Source of the DNA: Thermodesulfobacteriota bacterium
Lineage (GTDB): Bacteria > Desulfobacterota > Desulfarculia > JACQYL01
Direction: 5' to 3'
Assembly: GCA_963675595.2 (NCBI GenBank)
Contig: CAXXLZ010000002.1
Location: 288,001-352,000 of the forward strand
Length of the DNA: 64,000 nt
The stretch's first letter is position 1; each line of letters starts with the position of its first letter. Both the position numbers and the translations under genes were made by a program. Below the pieces are notes generated by a model. That model was not told the origin of the DNA, searched no databases, and was given only the letters and a program-made list of their open reading frames with translations. Shown here piece after piece: positions 1 through 18,015 of the stretch.

Positions 1-465
1 ACTTCCCTGTTGATTCTGCCTCTCCTGGGGGTGGTCATCTATGAAGTCGTCATGCGCTACGTGTTCAACGCTCCAACCATCTGGGCGTTTGAAACCACCA
101 CTTTTCTCTACGGCATGCACTATATGTTCGGCCTGTCCTACACCGACGTTCAAGACGGACATGTGCGTGTGGACATTTTCTCCGCCAGGCTGCCGGGGAG
201 AAAACAGGCCGCGCTGAACCTGGTCACGAATCTGATATTTTTCATGCCTGTATTCACCTGCATGACGATTTGGTCGTTTAAATTCGCCTGGGTCTCGGTG
301 CGGATGAACGAGGTGAACTCCACGAGTTGGGCGCCGCCCGTCTACCCTTTCAAACTCGTTATGGCGTTCTGCTTCCTGTTCCTGCTGCTCCAGGGCATGG
401 CCAATCTCCTGGACCAGATACGCGTGCTGCTGAACAAGAACGATTCAACAACAGAGGGGAACTGA
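1..465 (+). CDS. dctQ: TRAP transporter small permease (DctQ), N-terminus cut by window edge
   Basis: Frame open from base 1; YEVVMRYVFNAPTIWAFE and GHVRVD motifs; 4 TM segments; directly upstream of DctM. Confidence 0.9.
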   Translation, partial: TSLLILPLLGVVIYEVVMRYVFNAPTIWAFETTTFLYGMHYMFGLSYTDVQDGHVRVDIFSARLPGRKQAALNLVTNLIFFMPVFTCMTIWSFKFAWVSVRMNEVNSTSWAPPVYPFKLVMAFCFLFLLLQGMANLLDQIRVLLNKNDSTTEGN

Positions 466-466
466 T

Positions 467-1810
467 ATGAGTCCCGAAGTCCTGACTGTGTTCATGTTCG
501 GCGCCCTGATTCTGGCCATCACTCTGGGACATCCCCTGGCCTACACCCTTGCCGCCATTGCCGCTTTCGCCGGGTTGGTGGACAACGGTTTCAATGTTCC
601 CGCACTGTTCGAGATGTTCGCCAACAACACCTGGGGCCTGATGGACAACTACATCCTCGTGGCGATTCCTTTGTTCATCATGATGGCCCAGCTCTTGGAC
701 CGTTCGAAGGTGGCCGATCAGCTCTTCGAAGCCCTGTATGTGGTTCTGGGAAGCATCAAAGGTGGCCTGGGCCTGGCCGTGGTCGTTGTCTGCACCGTGT
801 TCGCGGCCACCACCGGCATCATCGGCGCTTCCGTCGTGGCCATGGGACTGCTCGCCACGCCCGCCCTTGTTCGCAAGAATTATCAGAAGGAAATGACCAG
901 CGGCATCATCTGCGCTTCCGGCACCTTGGGCATCCTGATCCCTCCGAGCATCATGCTCGTCATTTACGGAGGCCTGACCGGCCTGAAGGAAACCTCCGTG
1001 GGAGCCCTGTTCGCGGGTGCCATCATCCCCGGCCTAGTGTTGTCGGGCCTTTATTTCGCCTACATCTTCACTCGCTGCACGCTGAATCCCAAACTCGGCC
1101 CACCCATCAGCCGGGAGGAAGCCGGGAAATGGACGGCAAGACGGAAACTGCTCATCACCATGAAGTCCCTGGTTCCTCCCATGGCCTTGATCCTCCTGGT
1201 GATGGGAACGATTCTCGCCGGCATCGCCACTCCCACCGAGGCTGCGGGCTTGGGGGCGCTGGGCGCGCTGATCTTGGCTCTATTCAACCGGAAGCTGAAT
1301 TGGGACGTGCTCAAACAGGCAAGTTTCGCCACACTGAAGACCACTTCCATGGTGATGATGCTTTTCATCGGGGGTAAGTTTTTCAGTACGGTGTTCATGA
1401 GCATGGGCGGTGGAGACGTGGTGGCCGATCTGTTGGTGGGCAGCGGGCTCAATCGGTGGCTGGTGCTCTTCATCATGATGTTCATCGTTTTCCTGATGGG
1501 AATGTTCATCGACTGGGCGGCCATTCTCCTGGTTACGGTGCCCGTGTTCATGCCCATCGCCCAGGAACTCGATTTCAATCCGCTCTGGTTTTCGATTTTG
1601 ATGTGTGTCAACCTCCAGACCTCGTTTCTGACTCCGCCCTTCGGCTACGCCCTGTTCTACTTCAAAGGCGTGGCTCCCGAGGAATTCACCATGATGCACG
1701 TTTATAAGGGCATCATTCCCTTTGTGTTGCTTCAGCTTGCGGGATTGCTGGTTTTGGCGATTTTTCCCGGTGTGGTGACTTTTCTGCCCGATTTCTTTTT
1801 CGGCTCGTGA
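467..1810 (+). CDS. dctM: TRAP transporter large permease (DctM)
   Basis: AIPLFIMMA, GTLGILIPPS, TPTEAA, TPPFG motifs; very hydrophobic 447 aa. Confidence 0.95.
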   Translation: MSPEVLTVFMFGALILAITLGHPLAYTLAAIAAFAGLVDNGFNVPALFEMFANNTWGLMDNYILVAIPLFIMMAQLLDRSKVADQLFEALYVVLGSIKGGLGLAVVVVCTVFAATTGIIGASVVAMGLLATPALVRKNYQKEMTSGIICASGTLGILIPPSIMLVIYGGLTGLKETSVGALFAGAIIPGLVLSGLYFAYIFTRCTLNPKLGPPISREEAGKWTARRKLLITMKSLVPPMALILLVMGTILAGIATPTEAAGLGALGALILALFNRKLNWDVLKQASFATLKTTSMVMMLFIGGKFFSTVFMSMGGGDVVADLLVGSGLNRWLVLFIMMFIVFLMGMFIDWAAILLVTVPVFMPIAQELDFNPLWFSILMCVNLQTSFLTPPFGYALFYFKGVAPEEFTMMHVYKGIIPFVLLQLAGLLVLAIFPGVVTFLPDFFFGS

Positions 1811-1860
1811 CCTTTCGTGCGTCGGACCGGTCATTTGATTCATGAAGGAGATACGGCGAC

Positions 1861-2490
1861 ATGACAAACCGGAAAGACTTGGAAACAAGGTTCGAAGAGA
1901 AGGCAAGAAACGTGTCCGCTTTTGTCTCCAGAGTCGATACATTGGCTCAGGCACTGGACTATACGGTGGACGTCTGTGTACGCAAGGAAGCCTGCCGTCT
2001 TCTCTTGGCCGGGTGTGAGGAACCCTTGTCCGGAGGTGCGGAAGGCCTTTGCGATGCCGGGCGAGGGAAAACGGTGGCCGCTCCGGGCCTCGGCGCGGAA
2101 GCGACCCGCCTCCTTGGTCGGAGAATTGCCCGGGAGGACGTCGTTCTGGTCGAGGATACCCTGAGAAACCATTTGGCCGGCATTGATGTGGGAATCACCC
2201 TGGTCGATTTCGGCATCGCGGAAACCGGAACCCTGGTCATTGATTCCAGCGATGAGGAGATCAGGCTGGCAAGCATGATCAGTGAAATTCACGTGGCGTT
2301 GTTGCCCGTATCGAAGATCCGGGAAACGGCCTACGACGTTGAGAAGGAACTCGTCCAGGACATGCGCAGGCCGCCGAATTTCACCGCCTTCATCACCGGA
2401 GCCAGCAGAACGGCGGATATCGAACGCGTGCTGGCTCTGGGCGTTCATGGTCCCCTTGAGCTCCACATTTTGCTCATGGAGGAAGACTGA
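1861..2490 (+). CDS. lutC: LUD-domain lactate utilisation protein (LutC/LldG/YkgG)
   Basis: GIAETGTL, ITGASRTADIERVLALGVHGP motifs; AAGGAG RBS upstream. Confidence 0.9.
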   Translation: MTNRKDLETRFEEKARNVSAFVSRVDTLAQALDYTVDVCVRKEACRLLLAGCEEPLSGGAEGLCDAGRGKTVAAPGLGAEATRLLGRRIAREDVVLVEDTLRNHLAGIDVGITLVDFGIAETGTLVIDSSDEEIRLASMISEIHVALLPVSKIRETAYDVEKELVQDMRRPPNFTAFITGASRTADIERVLALGVHGPLELHILLMEED

Positions 2491-4670
2491 TGCAGGAGGC
2501 ACGGAACCTCAGGGAGTACAAAGACGAGGTGCGTGAGGCCCTGGACAATGAGTTCCAGCGGGAAGCGTTGGACAAATTCGCCCTCGCCTATCCCGTCGGC
2601 AGACAAAACGCCTTCGCCGGACTGGAAATCGACACGCTGGTGGACGAGGTGGCCCGCAGGAAGGACTTCGCCGTCGCCCACATGGAGGAACTCTATCAGG
2701 AGTTCAAAAGCAAAGCCGAAGCAGCGGGCGTTCACGTCCATTTGGCGCGCACCGCCAAGGAAGCCAACGACATCATCGCGGACATCGCCCGAAGCGCGGG
2801 AGCCCGGAACATCATCAAGTCCAAATCCATGACCGCGGAGGAGATTCTCCTCAACCACCACCTCGAAGCCGAGGGGTTCCAGGTCACGGAAACCGACCTG
2901 GGAGAATGGATCATCCAATTGCGTCACGAAGGACCGTCTCACATGGTCATGCCCGCCATCCATCTCTCCAGGTACCAAGTGGCCGACTTGTTCTCGGACG
3001 TCACGGGAAAAACGCAGGATGCCGAAATCGAACGGCTGGTCAAGGTGGCTCGGCGGGAACTCAGGCAGAAGTTCGTGGAGGCGGACTTGGGCGTTTCGGG
3101 CGCCAATTTCGCCGTTGCGGAAACCGGGACCATCGGCATGACCACCAACGAGGGGAACGCCAGGCTGGTGGCCACCCTGCCCAGGACTCACGTGGTCCTG
3201 GCGGGCCTGGAAAAGCTGGTTCCCAAACTCCACGATGCTCTTTCCATCAATCGAGTGCTTCCGAAAAACGCCACGGGGCAGGCCATCACCTCTTACGTCA
3301 CCTGGATCACCGGTCCCGTGGAATGCGGTGCAACCCCGGACCGGAAAAAGGAGTTGCACGTCGTCTTTCTCGACAACGGGCGCAGTCGGCTGGCTCGTGA
3401 TCCCGTTTTTTCCCAGGTGCTTCGCTGCATTCGCTGCGGAGCCTGCGCCAACGTCTGTCCCGTTTACCGAATGGTGGGAGGACACCGGTACGGCCACATC
3501 TACATCGGGGCCATCGGGCTCATTGTGACGTATTTCTTCCACGGCCGGGAAAAGGCCCGGAACCTGGTCATGAACTGCCTCAATTGCGGGGCCTGCAAGG
3601 CCGTGTGCGCCGCCGGGATCGACCTGCCTCGCCTCATCAAGGAAGTCCACACCAGGATTCAGGACGAGGAAGGACATCCGCTGAAAGGAAGGCTCGCAGG
3701 GATCGCCATGAAAAACCGGAAGCTGTTTCATGGGTTGCTGACGTCGCTGCGTCGGGCACAACGGCCCGTGACCGGGGGAACTCAGTTCATGAGACATCTG
3801 CCCATGGTCCTGTTCGGCGCTTACGAATACATGGCGCTTCCCGCCCTGGCCGAGCGTCCCTTTAGGGAGCTCTGGCCGACGATCCACACCCGCGTGGAGC
3901 ATCCCCGTTTCCGCGTGGCTCTCTTCGCCGGATGTCTCGAAGATTTCGTCTATCCCCAACATCTGATTGCGGCGGTTCGTCTGTTTTCACGCCATGGTGT
4001 GGACGTGCACTTTCCCCTCCACCAGACCTGTTGCGGTCTGCCTTTGGACATGATGGGGGAAAAGGAGACGGCCCGAGAGTTGGCGGAGCAGAATTTGGAG
4101 GCCGCGGATCCGGCGAATTACGACTATATTGTGACCCTGTGCGCCTCTTGCGCCTCCCACCTGAAGAACGGAGTTCCTCGGTTGCTTCAAATGGCTGGAA
4201 GTCCCTCCGCCAAAGCTCGAGAGTTCTCCGAGAAGATACTCCCCTTCAGTTCATTCGCCGCCGATGTGTTGAAGCTGGGTCCGGATGACTTCTCGCCTTC
4301 GAATCGCAAGGTCACCTACCACGCCTCCTGTCACCTTTGCCGAGGGCTCGGGGTCCGTAAAGCGCCTCACGAGCTGATCCGGGCCTCGGGATCGGATTTC
4401 GGACAGGCATCGGAAGAAGAAACCTGCTGCGGGTTCGGAGGAACCTACGCGAGCAATTTCCCGCAAATCTCCGAGCGGATATTGAAACGAAAGCTCGCGG
4501 ATTTTCAGCAGACCGGAGCGGACCTGCTCGTCACGGAATGTCCGGGTTGTGTGCTCCATTTGAAAGGGGGGGTTACCCGGCAGGGAATGTCCATGGAAGT
4601 TGAACACTTGGCCGAACACCTGGCCGATCAAATGAAACCCGGCCCCACCCGGGAAAAGGAGTTGCGATGA
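2490..4670 (+). CDS. lutB: L-lactate dehydrogenase large subunit: LutB (LUD + 2x[4Fe-4S]) fused to LutA-like CCG domains (LldH/LdhH type)
   Basis: KSKSMTAEEI, ETDLGEWIIQL, CIRCGACANVCP, CLNCGACKAVC, then TCCG and CCGFGG CCG domains; TGATG overlap with lutC. Confidence 0.9.
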   Translation: MQEARNLREYKDEVREALDNEFQREALDKFALAYPVGRQNAFAGLEIDTLVDEVARRKDFAVAHMEELYQEFKSKAEAAGVHVHLARTAKEANDIIADIARSAGARNIIKSKSMTAEEILLNHHLEAEGFQVTETDLGEWIIQLRHEGPSHMVMPAIHLSRYQVADLFSDVTGKTQDAEIERLVKVARRELRQKFVEADLGVSGANFAVAETGTIGMTTNEGNARLVATLPRTHVVLAGLEKLVPKLHDALSINRVLPKNATGQAITSYVTWITGPVECGATPDRKKELHVVFLDNGRSRLARDPVFSQVLRCIRCGACANVCPVYRMVGGHRYGHIYIGAIGLIVTYFFHGREKARNLVMNCLNCGACKAVCAAGIDLPRLIKEVHTRIQDEEGHPLKGRLAGIAMKNRKLFHGLLTSLRRAQRPVTGGTQFMRHLPMVLFGAYEYMALPALAERPFRELWPTIHTRVEHPRFRVALFAGCLEDFVYPQHLIAAVRLFSRHGVDVHFPLHQTCCGLPLDMMGEKETARELAEQNLEAADPANYDYIVTLCASCASHLKNGVPRLLQMAGSPSAKAREFSEKILPFSSFAADVLKLGPDDFSPSNRKVTYHASCHLCRGLGVRKAPHELIRASGSDFGQASEEETCCGFGGTYASNFPQISERILKRKLADFQQTGADLLVTECPGCVLHLKGGVTRQGMSMEVEHLAEHLADQMKPGPTREKELR

Positions 4671-5170
4671 AGCTGCCTGTGTTTCAACGAATTCTCTTCC
4701 CCACCGACATGTCGGAAAGCGCGGGATTCGCTTTTCCCTACGCCGCGGAGCTCGCCCACCGATTGAACGGCCATATTACCATTCTCCATGTGATCGAGAA
4801 TCCGTCTCACGCCATAGAACAGCAGATTCTCTCCTATTTGGGAGAATCGGGCTGGAAAGACCTGCAGAAGCATCGGGAGGATGATTTCGTCGCGGCGGCC
4901 AAGAATCGTCTTTCCGCCTTTTGTCAAGATATGAGCGACCGCTTGGACGACTGCCCCTTTATTGTCGAGGAGATCAAAGTGCTCCACGGCCTGCCTTCCG
5001 AAATCATCCTGCACGAAGCCGAAAAGGGAGGTTTCGACCTGGTGGTCATGGGGACCCACGGCTTCGGCCTGTTGGCCAACGCGCTCATGGGAAGCGTGGC
5101 CACCAGGGTGGTGCGTCATTGCTCCAAACCGGTGCTCACCATTCGATTGCCCAAGGAGAAGCGGGAATAG
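4667..5170 (+). CDS. Universal stress protein
   Basis: ILFPTDMS...LVVMGTHG...MGSVATRVVRH USP signature. Confidence 0.9.
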   Translation: MKLPVFQRILFPTDMSESAGFAFPYAAELAHRLNGHITILHVIENPSHAIEQQILSYLGESGWKDLQKHREDDFVAAAKNRLSAFCQDMSDRLDDCPFIVEEIKVLHGLPSEIILHEAEKGGFDLVVMGTHGFGLLANALMGSVATRVVRHCSKPVLTIRLPKEKRE

Positions 5171-5325
5171 AGACGCGGGAACCAATCGGTTATCTTTGTC
5201 CCGGATGCCGATCTCGATCTTCACCGGCCTGAGTTGCAGTCGAGCATACGGAATGGAAACGGCTTTCGCCTTGGAAAGGATGCACATTGAATTCATTGGA
5301 GTCTTCGTTGTTGAAGGAGCGCGGA

Positions 5326-7056
5326 TTGCGATTCAATAAGCTTCACCTTCTGATGGTTTTCTTGTCGGTCGTGACTCTGATGTTTGTCGTCGATGCGGAA
5401 GCAGGCTGGCGACTCGATGGGGGGCGCTTCCAGGCGTCGGTGCACGGTGGAATGGGATGCCTGGATTGCCACGAAAATATCCCGCAACAAACTCCGCACC
5501 CGAACCCTTCCGACGTGAACAAGTCCCTATCCGATTTCTTCGAACCGGAACACTGTCTGACCTGTCACGAAGAAGTACGGGACGAGATCGAAACCGAAGC
5601 CGTTCACGGTGGAGAAGACGTCCATGACACGCAACGCTTCTTTAACTGCGTGGCGTGCCACGATCCACACTACCAGGGAACGACCGAGGATGAGGCGGGC
5701 TCCGAGGCTCCGCAATGGAGCGAAGCGGACCGGCCGTGTATGACCTGCCATGAGCGGGTGCCGAAAGACGATCCGGCTCGACTGACGAAGGACCGCGACT
5801 TCTGCTTCGTCTGTCACGCCGCGAATTCGAGCACGCCCGCTTGGTTGCCGGCCATGGACCCGGCCGAATACACCCAATCCACCCATGCCGCGCAGGATTG
5901 CCTGTCCTGCCACACACGGGCCGACGGGTATGGACATGATCGCCAACCCAAGGTAGATTGCCGCGCCTGCCACCAGCCCCACGCGGAAAAAGTGACGCAC
6001 GACGCCCACTCCCTGGTTTCCTGCGAAGCCTGCCACTTGGGAGACGTGTCGCCCCTGCGCGACCCTCAAACCCATCAAGTGCTCTGGGAACGTACTCGAG
6101 CCGCCGGCGCGCTCTCGACGGTGCACGATTTTTCCGCCTCGGATGAAAGCACATGCCTTCGCTGTCACTTCAAGGGCAACACCGTGGGCACGGTTGCCAT
6201 GGTCCTGCCTCCCAAGAGTGTTTTGTGCATGCCCTGCCACGCGGCCACCCTCAGCATCGGAGATACCGTAACTTGGATCTCGCTGCTCGTGGCTTTTATC
6301 GGTTTCCTGGGGGTCGCGACCCTATGGTTTTCGGGACGGTCGGGCGAAACATCCGACAGAAGCCCCTCCGGCAATCCGACAAGCCACGCTCACAGCGCCG
6401 GTTTCTCTCATAGGCTGCCGGCCGTATTGGAGGCGATATTCTGGGATGTGCTCCTGCAACGACGGCTCTTTCGCAGGTCTCCGAGGCGCTGGGCCGTCCA
6501 TGCCCTGATTTTCTGGCCTTTCGTCATTCGCTTCGTCTGGGGCGTCTTGGCGCTGTTTTCAACGAACTATCTAAAATCATGGCCCTTTTCCTGGATCCTC
6601 GTGAACAAGAATTATCCGCTCACCGCCTTATTGTTCGATCTCACGGGAATCTGCCTGGCAATCGGAATCGTCCTGGCTTTTGTCCGGGGGGCCGCGGCGG
6701 ACCGAACCCGCACGCCCGGCTTGCCGTCCCAGGATCGTTTGGCCCTCGGCCTTCTGGGCGGCATCGTTTTGGTGGGGTTCGTCTTGGAAGGCATGCGTAT
6801 CGCGCTCACGGGCGCGCAGGGCCCCGCGGCCTTTGCGTTTTTAGGATACGGCATCAGCCGTCTGTTCACCGGGATGAACCAACTCAGCGTCGTTTACGGC
6901 TACGTCTGGTACCTGCACGCCGTCCTGACCGGGGCCTTTGTCGCCTACTTGCCCTTCAGCAGGATGATGCACATCATCATGGGACCGGTAATTTTGGCCA
7001 TGAACGCGGGAGCCGATCCACACCACGCCGGGCGACCGACGAAATCGAATCATTAG
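5326..7056 (+). CDS. Decaheme c-type cytochrome fused to NarI/HdrE/DsrM-like membrane cytochrome b
   Basis: 10 CXXCH motifs; probable TTG start at 5326 after AAGGAG giving a signal peptide ending AEA; C-terminal TM domain with AVHALIF, TGI, GFVLEG, YLHAV...YLPFSRMMHI. Confidence 0.85.
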   Translation: MRFNKLHLLMVFLSVVTLMFVVDAEAGWRLDGGRFQASVHGGMGCLDCHENIPQQTPHPNPSDVNKSLSDFFEPEHCLTCHEEVRDEIETEAVHGGEDVHDTQRFFNCVACHDPHYQGTTEDEAGSEAPQWSEADRPCMTCHERVPKDDPARLTKDRDFCFVCHAANSSTPAWLPAMDPAEYTQSTHAAQDCLSCHTRADGYGHDRQPKVDCRACHQPHAEKVTHDAHSLVSCEACHLGDVSPLRDPQTHQVLWERTRAAGALSTVHDFSASDESTCLRCHFKGNTVGTVAMVLPPKSVLCMPCHAATLSIGDTVTWISLLVAFIGFLGVATLWFSGRSGETSDRSPSGNPTSHAHSAGFSHRLPAVLEAIFWDVLLQRRLFRRSPRRWAVHALIFWPFVIRFVWGVLALFSTNYLKSWPFSWILVNKNYPLTALLFDLTGICLAIGIVLAFVRGAAADRTRTPGLPSQDRLALGLLGGIVLVGFVLEGMRIALTGAQGPAAFAFLGYGISRLFTGMNQLSVVYGYVWYLHAVLTGAFVAYLPFSRMMHIIMGPVILAMNAGADPHHAGRPTKSNH

Positions 7057-7091
7057 AAGGAAACGGCAACGATGGTTATGGAGGAAAGGTG

Positions 7092-9577: not shown

Positions 9578-9609
9578 CGAATCCCTGAAATTCCGAAAGG
9601 AGGCGTCCC

Positions 9610-10035
9610 ATGGATATCGGCGGCTACAACATGCCCGAGGACCTTTATTACGAGCCCAATCATTGGTGGGTCAAACAAGACGGAGACTTGTTGGTCATGG
9701 GAATGGACGACTTCGCTCAGAAACTGGCCGGAGAGATCGTCTATGTGCAATTGCCCGATGACGGAAAGAAGATCACGGCGGGGAAAAAGCTCGCCAAGGT
9801 CGAGTCCGGCAAATGGCTGGGCAAGGTCATCGCTCCGGTCAACGGCGTGATCGACTCGGTCAACGAGGAGCTGGAGGAAAACCCCGGTTTGATCAATGAA
9901 GACTGCTACGGCAAGGGCTGGATGTACAAAATCAAACCCGACGACGCCGGGGACCTGTCCAAACTGATTACCGGCGCGGAAGCCCTAACCAAATGGATCA
10001 ACGAAGAGATCGAAAAGTATGCCGACACGGAGTGA
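9610..10035 (+). CDS. gcvH: Glycine-cleavage-H-like lipoyl carrier protein (LbpA-type)
   Basis: HWWVK, GMDDFAQKLAGEI, VESGKWLG lipoyl-Lys motif, INEDCYGKGW; strong AGGAGG RBS. Confidence 0.9.
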   Translation: MDIGGYNMPEDLYYEPNHWWVKQDGDLLVMGMDDFAQKLAGEIVYVQLPDDGKKITAGKKLAKVESGKWLGKVIAPVNGVIDSVNEELEENPGLINEDCYGKGWMYKIKPDDAGDLSKLITGAEALTKWINEEIEKYADTE

Positions 10036-11239
10036 AGCCAAACCTTCCCGATTCAGCGTGCGGCAACGTATGGAGCTCACCGCGTGTACCAACTGCCGTT
10101 TGTGCGCGGATGTCTGCCCGGCCGTCAAAGCCTCGGACAAAGGTGAGCTCTCCGCGCTGAACCGCATGAAGGGTTTGCGGAAATTACTGAAGAGCCGGGG
10201 ACCCGGCTTCCTCGCCCGACTATTCGGTTCCAAGACCATGTCCGACGAGGAGCGGCGAGACTTTTCCAACAACGCTTTTAGCTGCACTCTGTGCGGCAAC
10301 TGCCGGGAAGTCTGTCCCGTGGGCATTCACCTCAAAGACCTCTGGCTTTCCCTGAGGGAGGACTTGGTTGATACGGACAATTTCCCCAAGAAAATCAACC
10401 TGATCAAGAAGAATCTCCTGGAAAGCCGCAATGTGTTCGGGGAAGACAACGAAGAACGGGCCGAATGGGTGGAAGACCTGGACGACGCACCGGACGACCT
10501 GTTGGTGCGGGATGAGGCGCAGGTGGTCTATTTCACCGGATGCACGGCGGCCTATTTCCCGGTGGCCCAGAAGATTCCTCTGGCATTTGCGGAAGTCCTT
10601 ACCAAAGCTGACGTGGATTTCTCCCTTATGGGAGAAGACGAATGGTGCTGCGGGTTTCCATTGCTGGGTGCCGGTCTGAGGGACCTTTTCCCCGAATTCG
10701 CCGAACACAACATGGAGGCGGTGCTGGAAAAGGGGGCCCGGGAAGTGGTGTTCGCGTGCCCTTCCTGTTACGAGATGTGGAAAGAGCACTACGACTATGA
10801 ATCACGGGGTATCGTCATTTATCACAGCACCCAATTCCTGTTGCGACTGATCCAATCGGGCGCTTTGAAACTCAAGGAATTGGATATGACCGTGACTTAT
10901 CACGACCCCTGCGACCTGGGCCGAGGGGCCAGGGAGTTCGAGGCACCCCGAGAGGTGATCCGTTCCATACCGGGAATTCGATTCGTGGAATTGCCGGACA
11001 ACCGTGAAAACTGCAATTGTTGCGGCGGCGGAGGCAATCTGGAGATGATCGATGCCGGGCTTTCCGCGGACATCGCCAAGGCCAAGATCGAGGAAGTCCT
11101 GTCCACGGGAGCCGACGCGGTGGTGACATCCTGCCAGCAGTGTGTGCGAACCATGCTGACCTACGCCAAGCGCAACAAGGTTCCCATCGAAGTGCTGGAT
11201 ATTACGCAACTCGTTCAACGGGCCCTGGCCGACTCCTGA
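10019..11239 (+). CDS. HdrD-like Fe-S protein (2x[4Fe-4S] + two CCG domains)
   Basis: CTNCRLCADVCP, CTLCGNCREVCP, WCCG/ACPSC, HDPC/CCGGGG/SCQQC. Confidence 0.88.
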   Translation: MPTRSEAKPSRFSVRQRMELTACTNCRLCADVCPAVKASDKGELSALNRMKGLRKLLKSRGPGFLARLFGSKTMSDEERRDFSNNAFSCTLCGNCREVCPVGIHLKDLWLSLREDLVDTDNFPKKINLIKKNLLESRNVFGEDNEERAEWVEDLDDAPDDLLVRDEAQVVYFTGCTAAYFPVAQKIPLAFAEVLTKADVDFSLMGEDEWCCGFPLLGAGLRDLFPEFAEHNMEAVLEKGAREVVFACPSCYEMWKEHYDYESRGIVIYHSTQFLLRLIQSGALKLKELDMTVTYHDPCDLGRGAREFEAPREVIRSIPGIRFVELPDNRENCNCCGGGGNLEMIDAGLSADIAKAKIEEVLSTGADAVVTSCQQCVRTMLTYAKRNKVPIEVLDITQLVQRALADS

Positions 11240-11266
11240 CCGACCCGCCTCGCTGGAACTCGAATC

Positions 11267-12859
11267 ATGACCACATGGCGTTTATTGGATACGCCGCCCA
11301 TGACGGCGGCCGAAAACATGGCCCTGGACGAGACGCTGGTGGAGCTCAAGGGCCGCGGCCGCACGCCCGATACCATCCGGTTTCTGCGTTTCAAGCCCCG
11401 GTGCGTCCTGGTGGGATACCACCAGGCCGTGCGGGAAGAGATTCGCCTCGAGTACTGCCGCGAACAAGGCATCGACGTGAACCGACGCATCACGGGCGGA
11501 GGCGCCATCTTTTTCGACGAGAACCAACTGGGTTGGGAGGTCTATGCAGACAAATCCTTCTTCAACATCGCCATTCCCAACAACCGCCTTTTCAAGGCCC
11601 TTTGTCGGCCGGTGGTCACCGCCCTGAAACGCCTGGGGCTGCGAGCCGATTTCCGCCCGCGCAACGATATCGAGATTCGAGGACGAAAGATTTCAGGCAC
11701 CGGCGGGACCGAGTCCGAAGAGGCTTTCATGTTCCAGGGAACCATGCTGGTGGATTTCGACGTGGACACCATGCTGCGGGCCCTGCGTATTCCGGTGGAG
11801 AAACTCAAGGCCAAGGAGATCGATTCGGTCAAGGATCGAGTGACCTGCCTCCAATGGGAGTTGGGTTACACGCCTCCTTTGGAGGAGATCAAAGCGGCCA
11901 TCCGATACGGCTTCGAAAGCGGGCTGGGAATCCGGCTGGAACCTGGGGGCCTTACCGATGAGGAAGAAGCGCTGTTCCGACGAAAGCTTCCGGGCTTTCA
12001 GTCTCCTGCGTGGATCGATTCCGTGAAGCCCGAGTTCGGGAGGCGCGAGGCGGTGCAGTCCTCCTACAAAGCCGATGCCGGGATGGTGCGGTACACCCTG
12101 GTCGTCAACCCGAGCCGGCGACGTTTGAAGGACATCTATATCACGGGTGATTTCCTCTGCTTCCCCGGCCGGGCGCTTTACGACCTGGAAGCGGCTCTGC
12201 GAGGCATGCCCCTGGACCGTCGAACGCTTCTCGAAACCATTCGGAGCTTCTTCGACGACGGACGCATCACCATACCCGGCATGCCCTTGGAAGCCTTTGT
12301 CCAGCCTCTGGAGCAGGCACTGGAGAAAATCAAGATCACGCGGTTCGGAATCCCCCTGGAGCACTGCAACCTGATTTCGGTAACCAACGGCTCCTTTGAG
12401 GAAATTCTGCGCATGGAGCCTTCGGTCCTGCTTCTGCCTTACTGCGCCAAGCTTACCGACTGCGACCTGCGGTACGCCAAGGGATGCAGGACCTGCGGGA
12501 GAGAGACCTGCACCATCGGTCCCGCCTGGACCCTGGCAAAAGAGCGCAAGATGAAGGTGATCAGCATCGTCAGCTTCGAGGACCTTTGGGCCGAACTCAC
12601 GCGCATGCGCGAGAAGGGAACCCGTGCCTACATCGGCTGCTGCTGTCAACCCTTCTACGCCAAACACGTGGATGATTTTCAGCGCAGCGGCGTACCGGGC
12701 ATCCTGCTGGATATCGACAACACCACCTGTTACGACCTGGACCAGGCCAAAGAGGCCTACGCCGGCCGATTCGAAAGCCAGACCGTGCTGAACCTGGAAT
12801 TGCTCGAAACCGTGCTGCGCGCCGGTGAGTCTCACTCGGCATGCCTGGAGACACGCTGA
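11267..12859 (+). CDS. lplA: Lipoate-protein ligase (catalytic + small C-terminal domain) with extra Cys-rich DUF116-like domain
   Basis: NMALDE, RRITGGGAIFFD, KISGTG, ITGDF; C-terminal LLPYC..C..CRTC..C..GCCC region. Confidence 0.88.
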   Translation: MTTWRLLDTPPMTAAENMALDETLVELKGRGRTPDTIRFLRFKPRCVLVGYHQAVREEIRLEYCREQGIDVNRRITGGGAIFFDENQLGWEVYADKSFFNIAIPNNRLFKALCRPVVTALKRLGLRADFRPRNDIEIRGRKISGTGGTESEEAFMFQGTMLVDFDVDTMLRALRIPVEKLKAKEIDSVKDRVTCLQWELGYTPPLEEIKAAIRYGFESGLGIRLEPGGLTDEEEALFRRKLPGFQSPAWIDSVKPEFGRREAVQSSYKADAGMVRYTLVVNPSRRRLKDIYITGDFLCFPGRALYDLEAALRGMPLDRRTLLETIRSFFDDGRITIPGMPLEAFVQPLEQALEKIKITRFGIPLEHCNLISVTNGSFEEILRMEPSVLLLPYCAKLTDCDLRYAKGCRTCGRETCTIGPAWTLAKERKMKVISIVSFEDLWAELTRMREKGTRAYIGCCCQPFYAKHVDDFQRSGVPGILLDIDNTTCYDLDQAKEAYAGRFESQTVLNLELLETVLRAGESHSACLETR

Positions 12860-13926
12860 TGAGCGAATCGCGGTTCGATGTTCTGGTAGTGGGCGCGGGG
12901 CCGGCCGGGTCTTCGGCGGCCGCGGCCGCGGCTCGAAAAGGCGCTCGCGTGCTCATGGTGGAGCGCCGGGAAACCATCGGCGTGCCCGTACGATGCGCGG
13001 AATTCATCCCCGCCATGCTGCTGGGCGAATTGGAAATCGACAAAGGTTTTATTGTTCAACCGGTGAAAGGCATGAAGACTCATATCGGAGACCACGCCGA
13101 AAAGACGACCCGCGCGCCCGGGTATATCATTCGAAGGGACCGATTCGATCAGACGCTGGCCGAAAAGGCGCGCACGGACGGCGTCCAAGTGATGACCGGG
13201 ACCCGAGTTTCACACATGGATGCGGACGGCCGAGTTTATCTCACGGCGCGATGCGGGCCCGGTCATGTGGTGGAGCCGCGAATCGTCATCGGAGCCGACG
13301 GTCCGCATTCCACCGTGGGACGCTGGGCGGGCTTGGTGAACCGCGGTCTTCTGCCGGCCGTTCAGGTGACCCTGCCCCTCACCCGACCTCTGGATCATAA
13401 CGAAGTGTATTTCCATCCGACCATCACCGCTGGATACGGCTGGCTTTTTCCCAAGGGTGATTCCGCCAACGTGGGACTGGGCATGCGCACCAACGAACGG
13501 GACGGGGAAAGCATCGGAAAGACCCTGGATCGCTTCGTGACCAAGCTGCGGCGCATGGACAAAGTGTCCGGCGACCCCACTTCCCGGACTGCGGGTTGGA
13601 TACCGGTTGAACCGTTGAGCCGCACCGTTCACGGTCCCATCGCTCTGGTGGGCGACGCCGCCGGACATACCCATGCCGTTACCGGGGCCGGCGTGTTCGC
13701 AGCAGTGGTCTGCGGCCGCATGGCCGGAAAGTGGGCCGGAGAAGCGGCACGAAACAATGACATCGGCCTTCTCGAAAAATACGAGCAGGGATGGCGGGAT
13801 TTTTTAGGCCGGACCCTGTGGCTGGCGAGGGAGCGTCGTCGAAAAATGGAAGCGGAATGGGACCGCTTCGCCGATGTGATACCCAAATGCTGGCCGGTTT
13901 ATCGTGAATACTATGCAAAACATTGA
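12859..13926 (+). CDS. Geranylgeranyl-reductase-family FAD oxidoreductase (LipT-like by context)
   Basis: VVGAGPAG, GADG, YGWLFPKG, VGDAAG; lies between ligase and LipS1; TGATG coupling. Confidence 0.8.
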   Translation: MSESRFDVLVVGAGPAGSSAAAAAARKGARVLMVERRETIGVPVRCAEFIPAMLLGELEIDKGFIVQPVKGMKTHIGDHAEKTTRAPGYIIRRDRFDQTLAEKARTDGVQVMTGTRVSHMDADGRVYLTARCGPGHVVEPRIVIGADGPHSTVGRWAGLVNRGLLPAVQVTLPLTRPLDHNEVYFHPTITAGYGWLFPKGDSANVGLGMRTNERDGESIGKTLDRFVTKLRRMDKVSGDPTSRTAGWIPVEPLSRTVHGPIALVGDAAGHTHAVTGAGVFAAVVCGRMAGKWAGEAARNNDIGLLEKYEQGWRDFLGRTLWLARERRRKMEAEWDRFADVIPKCWPVYREYYAKH

Positions 13927-14860
13927 ATATAAAAGGAAGCCGGACGAAAATTCGGCATGGGAGCGGCCAGGGCAGCACATCACCTTTTTTCTGCCGGGTA
14001 TGTTTCGACTCAACGGGCACACCGGGCGGTATCCGGCCGTTTCCATCACCGGCGGCGACTGCGCTCTGGGATGCGACCACTGCCGGGGAACGATTCTGTC
14101 CAATATGCTGAAGGCCGACGACCCGGATCGACTGCCGGCCGTGTGTAGACGTCTGGCGAATCAGGGGCATGTGGGAGTGCTCATCAGCGGGGGCTGCGGA
14201 CCGGACGGCACCATTCCCTGGTCGGGCTTCTTCGAGGCCATCCGCAAGATCAAATCCTCCACCGGGCTGTTTGTTTCCATCCACAGCGGATTGGTGGACC
14301 TCAAGACCGCCCGAAGCCTCAAGAACGCCGGCGTGGACCAGGCCCTCATCGACGTCATCGGAGATGATGCGACCTTCAGGTCCGTGTACCGGCTGCCTTT
14401 CGGCGTGGACGAGATCGCACGCTCCATGGAAGCTCTGCAAGCGGTCGGCATTCCCATTGTTCCTCACATCGTCTGCGGCATCGACCACGGCCGGATTCAC
14501 GGCGAGTATCAGGCCGTTGAAACGGCGGCCCGATTCAACATCGCCCAATTGGTCGTCGTATCCCTGATGCCCATTCCCGGCACCCCCATGGCCCGTGTAA
14601 AGCCTCCGAGCGCCGAACAAACGGCCGACATCATATCCGAAGCGAGGTCGAGAATGCCGGACATTCCCATCAGCTTGGGATGCGCCAGAAAACGAGGCGA
14701 CCATCGTCTGGAAGAACTGGCCCTGGACGCCGGCGTCACCCGCATGGCCCTTCCTTCGGAAGAGGCCGTACAGCACGCGCGAGACCGCGGGCTTCAGGTG
14801 CGTTTTCAGCCCACCTGCTGCTCCGTGCCTCCAATGCTGTATACCGATGGTTGGCTCTAG
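13913..14860 (+). CDS. lipS1: Radical SAM lipoyl synthase subunit LipS1
   Basis: CALGCDHC radical-SAM motif plus GCAR and C-terminal CC motifs described for LipS1. Confidence 0.8.
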   Translation: MQNIEYKRKPDENSAWERPGQHITFFLPGMFRLNGHTGRYPAVSITGGDCALGCDHCRGTILSNMLKADDPDRLPAVCRRLANQGHVGVLISGGCGPDGTIPWSGFFEAIRKIKSSTGLFVSIHSGLVDLKTARSLKNAGVDQALIDVIGDDATFRSVYRLPFGVDEIARSMEALQAVGIPIVPHIVCGIDHGRIHGEYQAVETAARFNIAQLVVVSLMPIPGTPMARVKPPSAEQTADIISEARSRMPDIPISLGCARKRGDHRLEELALDAGVTRMALPSEEAVQHARDRGLQVRFQPTCCSVPPMLYTDGWL

Positions 14861-15015
14861 CAGGGCGGTGAAAAACGCGATCTGCTGCGTTGCACTTCAT
14901 CCCTCGTCATTGCGGCGTACTCTATGTACGCCTTCATTCCTCGGGATTTGCGCGCCTTGCATATCATCGTTTTTCACCGCCCTGCGGCAACCGGACTTTT
15001 GAAACGGGCTGTTAG
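14857..15015 (+). repeat. MITE-like repeat family A (~160 bp), begins on the lipS1 TAG stop
   Basis: Ends CTAGCAGGGCGGTGAAAAA / TTTTGAAACGGGCTGTTAG; internal GCGTAC-N-GTACGC hairpin; homologous to copies at 32188, 34187, 51290, 54589. Confidence 0.8.
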
Positions 15016-15209
15016 CGATTCTTTGTGTGAGCCGGGGGACGCTTGTGCGGGGTCGCACCGCCTCCAGCGGAGCGACGTGAGGAAGATCAAGGGCGTTGAG
15101 CCGGCTCTTTAGTCTTTTTCCGTCACTTTGAAACGACGGAAAATGCCGCTTTGGAGAGGCGGCTCGTCTCTCGGTGAGCGCCTACGGGCAAACACATGCC
15201 GACACCCAC

Positions 15210-15278
15210 TTAGAAAGTTTGGAAAAGGGGGGTACGGGGGGGAGAACTTTTTTAAAAGTTCTCCCCCCCCGTGAATGC
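15210..15278 (-). repeat. GC-rich hairpin repeat ending in CCCCGTGAATGC
   Basis: GGGGGAGAACTTT-TT-AAAAGTTCTCCCCC hairpin plus shared terminal motif of families B/C. Confidence 0.65.
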
Positions 15279-15332
15279 TTTCAACCTTTTTGGCTTTTCC
15301 CGAGTGAACAACTGAGAAAGGAGCATCGAAGG

Positions 15333-16379
15333 ATGCCGTCCGATATGGAAACCAAAGAAAGCCCCGAATATTTGCGCACGAGTCTGGCAGCCGCCATGAC
15401 GTTGGGATTCAAACCGGGCATTTTCTACCGCGGGGCCAAGCTGTACTGCATCAACCTGCTGCTGACCTACCGCAGCGGATGCGCGGCGCGGTGCGCTTAC
15501 TGCGGGTTGTCTCGCGCCAGGTCCGGAGAATACGGCGACAAGAGTTTCATCCGGGTGAGCTGGCCCGCCTACGCTCTGGAAGAGATCATCGAAAGCATCG
15601 GTCGGCGCATGCAGCGGGTCAAGCGCATCTGCATTTCCATGATCACCAACCGGCGCGCCGTGGCAGACACCCGCGACATTTGCGCCAGACTCCGCTCCGC
15701 TTTCGACATTCCGGTATCGTTGCTCATTTCCCCCACCCTGGTGACGCGCGACGCCCTGATCGACTTCCGGGAGGCCGGAGCGGACAAGATCGGGGTGGCC
15801 TTGGACCTGGCCACCCCTGAACTGTTCTCCAGGTATCGAGGCAAAGGCGTGGGCGGCCCCCACTCCTGGGATCGGTATATGGAATGTCTCGGGGACGCTG
15901 TTGAGCTTTTCGGCCGCCGCAATGCCGGGTCCCACTTCGTGGTGGGCATGGGCGAAACCGAACGGGAAATGGTGGAGAGCATCCAGCGAGTTCAGGACAT
16001 GGGAGGCTGGACGCACCTGTTTTCCTTTTTTCCCGAAGCGGATTCCCCCATGAAGGACCACCCCATGCCGGACATGGATCATTACCGGCGCATCCAATTG
16101 GCCCGTTACCTGCTCGACGAAGGCATCTCCCGCGCCGAGCGTTTCAGGTACGACGAAGACGAACGAATTGAACACTTCGGCGTGCCCTCCCATCGCCTGG
16201 ACGAAGTGATCGACGGCGGTGAACCTTTCCGCACCAGCGGGTGCGAAGGCTATGACGGGCAGGTGGCCTGCAACCGACCTTACGCCAATTCACGCCCGGG
16301 TCCGGATATCCGAAATTTTCCCTTCCCACCCGAGGCTGAAGACATCGCACGCATTCGTGGGCAGATGGGTCTTGGGTAG
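15333..16379 (+). CDS. lipS2: Radical SAM lipoyl synthase subunit LipS2
   Basis: CAARCAYC motif and C-terminal TSGC...CNRP motif described for LipS2; ATG at 15333 after AAGGAG. Confidence 0.8.
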   Translation: MPSDMETKESPEYLRTSLAAAMTLGFKPGIFYRGAKLYCINLLLTYRSGCAARCAYCGLSRARSGEYGDKSFIRVSWPAYALEEIIESIGRRMQRVKRICISMITNRRAVADTRDICARLRSAFDIPVSLLISPTLVTRDALIDFREAGADKIGVALDLATPELFSRYRGKGVGGPHSWDRYMECLGDAVELFGRRNAGSHFVVGMGETEREMVESIQRVQDMGGWTHLFSFFPEADSPMKDHPMPDMDHYRRIQLARYLLDEGISRAERFRYDEDERIEHFGVPSHRLDEVIDGGEPFRTSGCEGYDGQVACNRPYANSRPGPDIRNFPFPPEAEDIARIRGQMGLG

Positions 16380-16389
16380 GTATTTATTT

Positions 16390-16480
16390 GCCGGGGAAAA
16401 CTTTCGAGAGAGTTTTCCCCTGACCCCTTTCAAAGCCTTGAAAGCGGGCCTCACCGCCTTCGCGGAGAGGCTTTCGGCGA
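16390..16480 (+). repeat. Repeat family B (GGGG..ACTTTCGAGAAAGT..CCCC + CCTCACCGCCTTCGGCGGAGAGG)
   Basis: Homologous to copies at 17903, 36421, 39726, 40988, 48491, 49858, 51153. Confidence 0.75.
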
Positions 16481-16683
16481 AAAAAATTCGGGAACGGGAG
16501 AGTAAGGCGGGCAGGTACTGTGGCCCTCCCTTCCGTCTTTTACGTAATCTCTACTCTGCCGCTCCGCCGCAGACGGCGCTGCCATGGTCCAAAGTCTTGC
16601 AGGGGTCAGGGGGGTCCGGGGGGCGCTTTTTCAAAAGCGCCCCCCGGCATCGTTAAACATCCAAACGAAGAAGGAACCGTTCT

Positions 16684-17850
16684 TTGCAGGGAATACTCAT
16701 CCTGGTCGCCTCCGTGGTCATGCAGATGTGCTTGGGGGCCACCTACTCCTGGTCCGTCTATGTTGGTCCGCTCAGGGAGCTGACCGGCATGCTGCAGGGA
16801 CCGACGCAGTTGCCGTTCACGTTCTTCTATTTCGTCTTTCCCGCCGTGATGATCATATCCGGAACGCTCCTTCCTCGGCTGGGCCCCCGATTCTGCTCCG
16901 TACTGGGCGGGCTTCTGTTCGGTTCCGGCTGGATACTGGCGAGTTGGGGTGACGTTCATTTCGCATTCACCGTGCTGGGCATCGGCATTCTGGCCGGAGT
17001 GGGCGTGGGATTCGCCTACATCGTTCCCATCGCCACGTGCATCCGGTGGTTTCCCGAACACAAGGGATTGGTGACCGGCGTGGCCGTGGCCGGCTTCGGA
17101 GGCGGTGCGGCTCTGGTAAGCCAGATCGGCGGCCGGCTCATGCACCTGCACGGAGCCACGCCTTTTGAAACCTTTCGCATTTTCGGCATCGCCTTCGCCC
17201 TGCTGGTCCCTTTGGCGGGCCTGGTCATGAAGAATCCGCAAGTCCAGGCCGGCGGCAAATCTTCAACTTCAAAGGCCCGAGGCATTGTGAATACAGGGCC
17301 CTTCCGTCTGCTGTACTTCGCCATGTTCAGCGGCTTGGCGGCGGGTTTTGCCGTGAATGCCAACCTCAAGGAACTCTTCATGGAAGGAAGCGCGGCCACC
17401 GGCATCCTGGCCGTGTCTCTGTTCGCCGCGGCCAATGCCCTGGGCCGGCTGACCTGGGGTTTCGTGTTCGACCGCCTGCCCTCTGCGACGGCGATTCAGG
17501 CCAACCTTTTCGCCCAGGCGGCCGTTCTCGTCGGCGGGCCGTGGGTGCTCAGATCCGAGACCGGTCTGCTGGTCTTTTCTCTGCTCACGGGATTCAACTA
17601 CGGAGGCGTTTTGGTGGTGTACGCGTCGTCCGCGGCACGCATTTGGGGCAATGAACGGGTGGGGAGCGTTTACGGGCGTCTGTTCTCGTCCAACATTCCC
17701 GCCGCCCTGGCGCCCATCGCAGCCGGGGTTCTGTTCGATTGGACGGGAAGTTTCACCCTGCCTTTGTGGTTCATCGGCGGGATGCTGACCGTCGCGGCGC
17801 TCATGGTGAAGAGGAATTCGGGGCGGTTGACGGAGGAATCGGACGTGTGA
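16684..17850 (+). CDS. MFS transporter, oxalate/formate antiporter (OFA)/monocarboxylate family
   Basis: CLGATYSWSVY, RWFPEHKGLVTG, GFGGG, NALGRLTWGFVFDR; about 12 TM. Confidence 0.88.
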   Translation: MQGILILVASVVMQMCLGATYSWSVYVGPLRELTGMLQGPTQLPFTFFYFVFPAVMIISGTLLPRLGPRFCSVLGGLLFGSGWILASWGDVHFAFTVLGIGILAGVGVGFAYIVPIATCIRWFPEHKGLVTGVAVAGFGGGAALVSQIGGRLMHLHGATPFETFRIFGIAFALLVPLAGLVMKNPQVQAGGKSSTSKARGIVNTGPFRLLYFAMFSGLAAGFAVNANLKELFMEGSAATGILAVSLFAAANALGRLTWGFVFDRLPSATAIQANLFAQAAVLVGGPWVLRSETGLLVFSLLTGFNYGGVLVVYASSAARIWGNERVGSVYGRLFSSNIPAALAPIAAGVLFDWTGSFTLPLWFIGGMLTVAALMVKRNSGRLTEESDV

Positions 17851-17902
17851 AGGGATCGGAAACCCGCACCGGCTCAATGGGTTCGGATCTCCTATGGCAG
17901 CC

Positions 17903-18015
17903 GTTTACGGGGGGGAACTTTTGAAAAAGTTCCCCCCCGCGGCCCCCCTCAAACATCTCAAACGGGCCTCACCGCCTCCTGCGGAGCGCCTGAAGAAAAT
18001 AGGGTTGCTCACTAA
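17903..18015 (+). repeat. Repeat family B copy (between convergent genes)
   Basis: GGGGGGAACTTTT-GA-AAAAGTTCCCCCC hairpin followed by GGCCTCACCGCC. Confidence 0.75.

Follow-up and report, generated by a model that had tools for sequence, protein, structure and literature searches.

Introduction

Three ideas in print come nearest to the gene module described here: the lipoate-binding protein LbpA of the sHdr system of sulfur oxidation, HdrD-like subunits of lactate dehydrogenases that reduce DsrC, and the speculative lipoyl carrier 'LarG'. The sHdr system requires LbpA together with an assembly set of its own, sLpl(AB)-LipS1-LipT-LipS2 (Cao et al., 2018, PMC6067878; Tanabe et al., 2023, PMC10332631). 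For lactate dehydrogenases with an HdrD-like subunit, a Desulfoluna preprint suggests that electrons may pass via this subunit to DsrC (10.1101/630186). LarG was put forward for Pelobacter carbinolicus, where its partner is the Act complex, electrons flow inward and NAD+ is the end acceptor; the relevant passages of that paper mention neither CCG proteins nor a lactate dehydrogenase (Aklujkar et al., 2012, PMC3543383). The module reported here lies at positions 1-17850 of a 64,000-nucleotide stretch of DNA (the window, by which the whole stretch is meant) from a Thermodesulfobacteriota bacterium (assembly GCA_963675595.2, contig CAXXLZ010000002.1, positions 288,001 to 352,000). It has four parts: a membrane cytochrome b with a decahaem domain (MHCb), an HdrD-like protein (CCG2), a GcvH-like lipoyl protein, and a dedicated lipoate-protein ligase with LipT/LipS1/LipS2-like genes. 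From gene content and motifs we propose, giving the idea an even chance of being right, that lipoyl-GcvH would serve an HdrDE/Tmc-like membrane complex as its dithiol/disulfide substrate, and would be reduced in this host by a D-lactate dehydrogenase.

The original prediction, made from the sequence of the window, knew of no description of such a pathway. A literature search likewise turned up no paper in which a GcvH- or LbpA-like protein of sulfate reducers is connected with HdrD-like proteins, with multihaem cytochromes or with lactate dehydrogenase, most subscription journals and relevant supplements lying outside its coverage; a lipoyl electron carrier as such had been speculated upon in 2012. 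There is a real chance that the module is a new carrier system.

The locus and its closest relatives

The module forms part of an uninterrupted run of 15 genes, all on the + strand, as established by a listing of open reading frames (ORFs) and by Pfam and NCBIfam scans:

1-465, +: DctQ, TRAP small membrane subunit (PF04290, 88.4 bits; ORF open at the 5' edge of the window)
467-1810, +: DctM, TRAP large subunit (PF06808, 277 bits)
1861-2490, +: LutC-like LUD-domain subunit of L-lactate dehydrogenase (PF02589, 110 bits)
2490-4670, +: LutB-LutA fusion, LdhH-type (NF045670, 1038 bits, cut-off 800; Pfam LUD, Fer4_8 and two CCG domains)
4667-5170, +: universal stress protein Usp (PF00582, 101 bits)
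5287-7056, +: MHCb, signal-anchored decahaem cytochrome c joined to a five-helix NarI/EtfD-like cytochrome b (589 amino acids; 10 CxxCH)
7092-8474, +: GlcD-type FAD-linked 2-hydroxyacid (probably D-lactate) dehydrogenase (PF01565, PF02913; TIGR00387, 506.5 bits, cut-off 567.9)
8471-9577, +: CCG1, HdrD/LdhB-like iron-sulfur protein (Fer4_8 and two CCG domains; two ferredoxin and two complete CCG motifs)
9610-10035, +: GcvH-like lipoyl carrier (PF01597, 131.9 bits; lipoyl Lys68 in the motif ESGKWLGK)
10019-11239, +: CCG2, HdrD-like protein (Fer4 and 2xCCG)
11267-12859, +: lipoate-protein ligase (LplA and LplB domains) fused to Cys-rich DUF116 (PF21948, 171 bits; PF01976, 35.5 bits)
12841-13926, +: geranylgeranyl-reductase-family (GGR) flavoprotein, LipT-like (TIGR02032, 209.9 bits, cut-off 158.8)
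13904-14860, +: LipS1-like radical SAM lipoyl synthase (NF053742, 218.6 bits, cut-off 230)
15174-16379, alternative start 15333, +: LipS2-like radical SAM lipoyl synthase (NF053743, 222.3 bits, cut-off 270)
16684-17850, +: major facilitator superfamily (MFS) transporter (best match the L-lactate MFS transporter SfMCT, NF049980, 228.9 bits, cut-off 320)

These analyses bear out the co-directional run as it had been listed from the sequence. One assignment is revised in part: the last gene does encode an MFS transporter, but its best match is the L-lactate transporter and not the oxalate/formate antiporter (OFA) subfamily originally named, the model of which also stays under its cut-off. Five gene pairs overlap by 1-23 nucleotides (nt), most of the remaining gaps measure 1-116 nt, and gaps of about 300 nt occur only twice, ahead of LipS2 and ahead of the MFS gene. 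GlcD starts at ATG 7092, preceded by GGAGGA, and the longer ORF start at 6579 is not the true one. The gene for DctP lies just 5' of the window (L154:10599-11753). A promoter and terminator scan of 1-18300 returned chance-level counts (4 against 5.0 expected, and 27 against 19.6 ± 5.0) and was uninformative on operon structure. Just upstream of the window there are also, on the minus strand (L154:8023-10169), a divergent GntR/FCD regulator and a 479-amino-acid protein with Fer4 and 2xCCG domains, the fourth CCG protein at the locus, the best match of which is the C-terminal half of LdhH.

The run constitutes an operon for the utilisation of lactate in a member of the Desulfobacterota. Its LutB-LutA fusion passes the curated LdhH cut-off and is immediately preceded by a LUD-domain gene, which places the pair among the LutABC/LdhH enzymes. 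Lactate rather than glycolate is pointed to as the substrate, because the lactate racemase gene LarA occurs in 14 of the loci compared below and because the window itself encodes an L-lactate dehydrogenase and a lactate-type transporter. Glycolate oxidase GlcDEF was considered and rejected: the GlcE gene is absent, the TIGR00387 score of GlcD falls short of its cut-off, and against the GlcF model CCG1 and CCG2 reach 77.8 and 37.2 bits (cut-off 333).

Like sHdr-LbpA loci, this one has a GcvH-like protein encoded among CCG proteins, its own ligase, GGR flavoprotein and two radical SAM synthases, and a canonical LipA elsewhere in the genome. The GGR flavoprotein occupies the position that LipT (described in PMC10332631) holds in lipS1-lpl-lipT-lipS2 clusters, and all four gene types of the sHdr-type assembly set stand in the expected cluster, with LipS1, LipS2 and the ligase below curated cut-offs; for the ligase this holds of every NCBIfam ligase model, and its DUF116 extension spans residues about 382-490. 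Unlike sHdr loci, the window has no HdrA, HdrC1B1/HdrC2B2, DsrE, TusA or rhodanese among the ORFs scanned, a GlcD-type dehydrogenase and a membrane cytochrome b/decahaem protein take their place as partners, the module occurs in sulfate-reducer lineages, and the ligase carries DUF116. Likewise none of the 32 ORFs of at least 120 amino acids scanned in 18-64 kb encodes a glycine-cleavage P, T or L protein, a 2-oxoacid dehydrogenase or an Hdr protein; within these scans the window shows none of these genes and no sHdr genes, as had been stated from the sequence, and the genome holds a second, Hdr-like GcvH locus outside it.

With HdrDE of Methanosarcina, TmcABCD, HmcABCDEF and DsrMK(JOP) the module shares a cytoplasmic protein with two ferredoxin and two full CCG motifs, which is paired with a cytochrome b of probable NarI type, and in all of these the substrate on the cytoplasmic side is presumed to be a small dithiol/disulfide carrier. 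MHCb moreover has a putatively periplasmic multihaem c domain, as Tmc and Hmc have. Unlike HdrDE, Tmc and Hmc, the module has its c-haem domain fused to the cytochrome b, and the proposed carrier is lipoyl-GcvH rather than DsrC or CoM-S-S-CoB. CCG2 is also no orthologue of TmcB (78.3 bits, cut-off 735), HmcF (66.3, cut-off 750) or DsrK (86.6, cut-off 400) by the scores of their models. EtfD of M. smegmatis (PDB 9ojn; PMC13083937) differs in being one fused chain without c haems, where CCG2 and the cytochrome b are separate genes and no ETF genes lie near the module. On the dehydrogenase side, GlcD-CCG1 has the domain make-up of LdhA/LdhB in the LdhAB-type D-lactate dehydrogenases of Desulfovibrio, and TfrB of thiol:fumarate reductase TfrAB is the best NCBIfam match of both CCG1 (158 bits) and CCG2 (175 bits), each below the cut-off of 385. 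What sets the locus apart from LdhAB and TfrAB is that the encoded neighbour is a lipoyl protein, not DsrC or CoM/CoB.

A carrier without a glycine cleavage system

The host genome (6.8 Mb) is 98% complete, and neither GcvP (PF02347) nor GcvT (PF01571) was found in it; GcvP was not found in 11 of the 20 module-bearing relatives either. By fold the carrier is a GcvH, with the GCV_H domain and its lipoyl-lysine (PRK01202, 134.5 bits, cut-off 117; TIGR00527, 114.0 bits, cut-off 115.85), while the P and T proteins that would make it functional as such were not found in the genome. A role as glycine-cleavage subunit is therefore rejected for this host, and the possibility that the carrier complements a glycine cleavage system encoded elsewhere in the genome, which would have undone the original prediction, did not hold. 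A canonical GcvH that adjoins gcvP in one relative has ESVKAA in place of the ESGKW[LV]G of the carrier; this relative (L048, on G010:C10) is the sole case seen in which canonical gcvH and gcvP lie about 5 kb from the module. The role described for H-protein in [FeFe]-hydrogenase maturation (PMC11736057) was also considered, and would leave the CCG and cytochrome neighbours unexplained. Against the NCBIfam model GcvH_rel_desulf the window carrier stays below the cut-off (55 against 150 bits).

The lipoyl-assembly genes of the window are an extra set, since the genome also has a canonical LipA and further members among its three ligase-family genes, and its one E1-E2-E3 complex is on another contig.

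Three GcvH-like genes are present in the host, one of them in the window. The second sits at C2:2,785,100-2,794,200 (L008:5116-14154, minus strand) in the order HdrB-like protein (294 amino acids), HdrA-like protein (949 amino acids; best NCBIfam match HdrA2), GcvH (43% identical to that of the window, motif QSRKWIGK), LplA-type ligase, LipS2-like protein, Mrp/NUBPL ATPase and TauE-family exporter; with a carrier of its own, this locus looks like an Hdr unit of the sHdr-like or the bifurcating kind. The third is a weak GCV_H match (37.6 bits) at C2:2,110,538-2,110,897 (L009), in an ORF of 199 amino acids.

Conservation of the core

CCG2 orthologues (56-69% identity, E 1e-147 or better) occur in 19 of 40 relatives. 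Sixteen loci from these relatives could be compared, and in 15 of them GcvH adjoins CCG2, the remaining one being interrupted by a contig end; GlcD-CCG1 is present in 11, and cytochrome, GcvH, CCG2 and ligase stand alone in 4. A scan of public genomes gave 620 confirmed CCG2 matches, the best 80 of which were analysed; 70 of these loci have at least 700 bp of room for adjacency to be assessed, and 42 have at least 5.5 kb upstream. Within this set of best matches GcvH immediately precedes CCG2 in 63 of the 70 assessable loci, so that the synteny foreseen in the original prediction is indeed conserved. The 42 loci with the longer upstream region contain the cytochrome fusion in 35 cases, GcvH in 36, CCG1 in 18 and GlcD in 17. 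Downstream, the ligase follows in 42 of 61 loci, and GGR, LipS1 and LipS2 in 11, 12 and 11 of 44. Nearly all hosts belong to Desulfobacterales, Syntrophobacteria, Desulfarculaceae, Desulfatiglandales or Desulfovibrio, and a complete D. desulfuricans chromosome carries the module (L122). Dozens of genomes share the core order, which makes the arrangement more than a product of chance.

The ligase itself comes in two lengths. A long form fused to DUF116 (about 500-530 amino acids, at least 55% identical) occurs in 14 of 61 assessable loci, mostly alongside GGR-LipS1-LipS2 (11-12 loci with enough downstream sequence), and a short form of about 350 amino acids is found elsewhere.

Across 401 genomes sampled evenly from the phylum, where co-occurrence was cross-tabulated from two lists, a CCG2 orthologue was present in 35 (about 9%), a module-like GcvH in 31 and both in 25. 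Besides the host, 23 of the 24 co-carrying genomes have CCG2 and GcvH no more than 3 kb apart. Ten genomes had CCG2 only, most of them from one family in which CCG2 is 44-48% identical; loci fetched from this divergent clade do contain a GcvH, itself more divergent. Six genomes had GcvH only.

Exchange of partner genes

All ORFs of 96 loci and the window (97 sources) were clustered, and the clusters were named by Pfam and NCBIfam. Two layouts stand out. The lactate type runs (GntR, LarA, DctPQM) cytochrome, GlcD, CCG1, GcvH, CCG2, ligase. The second runs AcoX-like, E1 alpha, E1 beta, E2, E3, LipA, cytochrome, GcvH, CCG2, ligase, and often includes a short-chain dehydrogenase. E1, E2 or E3 was found in 18 of the 97 sources, just one of which also has GlcD; E3 occurs in 15 and LarA in 14. 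Since these 18 loci join the module to an E1-E2-E3 complex, it is not specific to 2-hydroxyacid oxidation.

Further layouts combine the same parts differently. In a clade at 45-52% identity the order is GlcD, CCG1, GcvH, CCG2 and then a stand-alone NarI-like cytochrome b of 282 amino acids without c haems (L127, L128, L130, L133, L136 and partly L126), which matches PF02665 with 24.5 and 30.1 bits (cut-off 22.9). One chromosome has GlcD-CCG1-GcvH separate from cytochrome (MHCb)-CCG2. Two more arrangements emerged when the six GcvH-only genomes were followed up. In one family four genomes (L168-L171), two of which also carry a window-type module, encode an HdrA-like protein with an MvhD/FlpD domain, an HdrB-like protein, GcvH and then a GlcD::Fer4::CCG fusion (860 amino acids); two genomes of another family (L172, L173) have GcvH, LarA and then a GlcD::Fer4::CCG fusion of 829 amino acids. 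Their domain content suggests soluble, perhaps bifurcating, lipoyl-linked lactate dehydrogenases. A lipoyl-carrier gene beside CCG enzymes in at least five gene orders indicates proteins that work together, and would otherwise be hard to explain. A relay for 2-hydroxyacid oxidation, as first envisaged, thus gains from the presence of GcvH beside GlcD/CCG in three further layouts, but is too narrow a description for the 18 loci in which E1-E2-E3 takes the place of the lactate enzymes.

The membrane cytochrome, CCG2 and the carrier

MHCb has 10 CxxCH motifs in the window and 11 in most of its 34 orthologues. Across all 35 sequences three His are conserved without exception, His405, His544 and His562, and the last helix holds two of them at a distance of 18 residues. 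No other invariant His was found; these three would suffice for one bis-His haem and one further ligand of a dihaem cytochrome b of the NarI kind. The C-terminal domain scores just under the cut-off of PF02665 (Nitrate_red_gam; 21.7 bits, E 1.7e-4, cut-off 22.9). An AlphaFold2 model of the membrane domain (pLDDT 86.3) has EtfD (9ojn) as its best Foldseek match (E 4.7e-4, TMq 0.60), followed by NarI chains. The N-terminal hydrophobic stretch suggests that the haem c domain is periplasmic.

CCG2 is 32% identical to CCG1 and contains two CxxCxxCxxxCP and two C..CCG..CxxC motifs, all 18 Cys of which are invariant in 12 orthologues. Its best solved relative by sequence is M. smegmatis EtfD (E 1.4e-44), the clusters of which are non-catalytic according to its authors, with Thr539 replacing a Cys and His583 completing the second cluster (PMC13083937). 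In a HMMER alignment CCG2 has Cys at the position of Thr539 and Ser at that of His583. Because both CCG motifs are complete and these residues stand at the two EtfD-diagnostic positions, CCG2 classes by its motifs as Hdr-type, not EtfD-type, and a pure electron wire of the EtfD kind is made less likely. The pairing of CCG2 with a cytochrome b put forward in the original prediction is supported by these Hdr-type cysteines and by synteny with a NarI-like cytochrome b, an association that, in the set of best matches, 5 of the 42 loci with room depart from, no cytochrome b having been found there.

In the carrier, Lys68 is invariant, and all but 2 of the 82 members of its cluster (80) have the motif ESGKW[LV]G. 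Prediction of a CCG2-GcvH complex gave ipSAE values of 0.47, 0.49 and 0.47, the best control scoring 0.00, with at least 89% contact agreement between runs and a partner pLDDT of at least 88. In the calibration of this method, 116 of 157 solved complexes and 2 of 215 mismatched pairs reached the mark; at scores up to 0.60 it was reached by 18 of the 157 solved complexes and by both passing mismatches. The predicted complex, which the original prediction had proposed to model, thus lends weak support and raises the odds of binding a little.

Proposed mechanism

From the observed gene and domain content, cofactor motifs, fold class, and conserved and recombining synteny, we infer a relay in which the carrier would be lipoylated and would bind either CCG protein. 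The cytochrome b, with or without its multihaem domain, and CCG2 would form an HdrDE/Tmc-like membrane complex, the cytoplasmic substrate of which would be the lipoyl arm of the GcvH-like protein. The lipoyl disulfide would be reduced by cytoplasmic dehydrogenases encoded by neighbouring genes, here a GlcD-CCG1 D-lactate dehydrogenase and elsewhere an acetoin/pyruvate-type E1-E2-E3 complex. The dihydrolipoyl arm would then be re-oxidised by CCG2 at its noncubane clusters, and electrons would move onward via haem b to menaquinone, or via the c haems to the periplasmic cytochrome pool. Each of these transfers, and the outward direction of flow, is inferred from the same observations.

The two halves of the relay differ in their energetics. 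The potential of lactate/pyruvate is about -0.19 V and that of menaquinone about -0.07 V. Oxidation of the dihydrolipoyl arm by menaquinone is thermodynamically easy, and reduction of the carrier by an E1-E2 complex is natural. For lipoamide PMC6067878 quotes -0.29 V, so that lactate would have to reduce the carrier against a gap of about 100 mV, which calls for a strong pull from the membrane side. This is the main weakness of the proposal, and makes the first, reductive half of the relay the weaker one: the step in which GlcD and CCG1 reduce lipoamide with electrons from lactate is favoured by synteny in lactate-type loci and disfavoured by energetics. The membrane potential would also favour outward flow through haem b, and this could help electrons to reach low-potential periplasmic cytochromes, by analogy with the 'reverse redox loop' named in a 2026 preprint (10.64898/2026.08.18.745454).

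Several other points tell against the relay. In 7 of the 70 assessable loci GcvH is absent beside CCG2. Intact CCG motifs also occur in enzymes without a known thiol substrate, such as GlcF and GlpC, both among the NCBIfam matches obtained here, and are thus necessary but not sufficient for disulfide chemistry; EtfD, to which both CCG2 and the membrane domain are closest among solved structures, works without a thiol substrate. Support from the predicted complex for binding of GcvH to CCG2 is weak, and LipS1 and LipS2 fall just below their NCBIfam cut-offs. Finally, the E1-E2-E3 loci carry E3 and LipA, so that GcvH and the ligase could there be cofactor-assembly genes.

Alternative explanations

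This last point can be extended to the whole module. GcvH, the ligase and LipS1/LipS2 (or LipA) would on this account be hitch-hikers that form a lipoyl relay for maturing E2, and MHCb-CCG2 and GlcD-CCG1 would pass electrons directly, in the manner of EtfD. The 18 loci in which the module directly follows E1-E2-E3, often with a canonical LipA (379 bits, cut-off 310), fit such a role, and acetoin clusters are known to carry lipoate-synthesis genes, acoS of P. carbinolicus being an example (PMC3543383); among solved structures, moreover, CCG2 and the membrane domain stand closest to a pure electron wire (PMC13083937). For E1-E2-E3 loci the explanation is plausible. It fits neither the lactate-type loci, which lack a lipoyl-dependent enzyme and yet keep GcvH between cytochrome and CCG2, nor the GlcD::CCG-fusion loci, where GcvH adjoins the fusion with no E2 nearby. 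A lipoyl relay also requires a transferase of the LipL/LipM type, whereas five downstream ligases that were scanned are all of the LplA+LplB type and none is such a transferase. The host already has LipA and another ligase-family gene, with its E1-E2-E3 complex on a different contig, and CCG2 has neither of the EtfD-type non-catalytic substitutions. As an account of the module in general we consider it unlikely.

The remaining alternatives keep the carrier at the centre and change what it carries or where its electrons come from. Tmc and Hmc are thought to import electrons, and their electron-entry subunits resemble the periplasmic multihaem domain of MHCb; complexes of the HdrDE and DsrMK type likewise run from the membrane to a cytoplasmic disulfide. 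Electrons from periplasmic H2 or formate could accordingly pass through the decahaem domain and haem b to CCG2, which would reduce lipoyl-GcvH, and the reduced carrier would drive reductive reactions or, via E3, the reduction of NAD+. The presence of E3 in 15 loci suits this direction, as does the 2012 proposal that reduced LarG is re-oxidised by dihydrolipoamide dehydrogenase in P. carbinolicus (PMC3543383). The setting is nevertheless catabolic, with TRAP and MFS lactate uptake, an L-lactate dehydrogenase, lactate racemase and GntR/FCD regulators, and no reductive consumer of dihydrolipoyl-GcvH is encoded nearby. The variants with a stand-alone cytochrome b, furthermore, lack a periplasmic entry domain, and menaquinol cannot reduce lipoamide, so that inward flow appears quite improbable. 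A role as sulfur carrier, as proposed for LbpA in sHdr, would have the dihydrolipoyl arm hold sulfane sulfur (as persulfide or trisulfide) that is processed by the CCG proteins, the lactate or acetoin operon being incidental. A sulfur-binding function has been suggested for LbpA (PMC6067878), the assembly genes correspond in type to those of sHdr systems and the carrier is GcvH-like; the second locus of the host also joins HdrB-like and HdrA-like proteins, GcvH, ligase and LipS2 to a gene of the TauE sulfite-exporter family. On the other side, Pfam identified neither DsrE nor TusA nor rhodanese when the ORFs scanned between 1 and 18 kb and the clusters shared by the 96 loci were named, and the recurring partners are carbon-substrate dehydrogenases, transporters and lactate racemase. 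We regard a sulfur-carrying role as very improbable, and retain the outward electron relay through lipoyl-GcvH as the preferred reading.

Other features of the window

Directly after the operon, on the minus strand (18115-20607), is an ORF of 830 amino acids for which the sole Pfam match is a divergent InlB B-repeat (Flg_new_2, 30.7 bits). A TauE-family gene lies at 32783-33745, and at 36682-38258 two overlapping ORFs each match part of Sulf_transp (YeeE/YedE-like) and may represent a frameshifted or split gene. The region 40001-50000 has a GC content of 0.485-0.52 against 0.55-0.62 around it; besides methyltransferase and GGDEF genes it holds several ORFs that match nothing in Pfam, and it may be an acquired island. 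Two P-type ATPases at 51403-58490 are each paired with small HMA_2-domain proteins, and HMA_2 domains were found at 40382-40828, at 54894-55397 and at the N-terminus of 56214-58490.

Significance

How the NAD-independent lactate dehydrogenases of sulfate reducers hand over their electrons has been debated for decades, and the cytoplasmic substrate of many HdrD-like CCG proteins is likewise debated, DsrC being the usual guess. The module offers a concrete, genetically encoded candidate carrier. More tentatively, and with distinctly less confidence than we place in the relay at this locus, protein-bound lipoate may be a general diffusible dithiol/disulfide electron carrier in anaerobic Desulfobacterota, a 'lipoyl pool' held on dedicated GcvH paralogues. 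Such a pool would collect electrons from several unrelated dehydrogenases of the cytoplasm, namely GlcD/CCG D-lactate dehydrogenases and acetoin/pyruvate-type E1-E2-E3 complexes, and deliver them to an HdrDE-like membrane complex with cytochrome b and multihaem parts or to soluble HdrA/HdrB-like modules, doing the job of DsrC or CoM-S-S-CoB; in at least part of the sulfate reducers it would be the acceptor that has long been sought for the HdrD-like subunits of lactate dehydrogenases. The relay proposed for the module is directly testable, as it involves few proteins with soluble partners. If that proposal is right, the respiratory role of lipoate would extend beyond sulfur oxidation by sHdr-LbpA, anaerobic respiration would gain a new kind of membrane complex, and the orphan GcvH paralogues in genomes without glycine cleavage would be explained.

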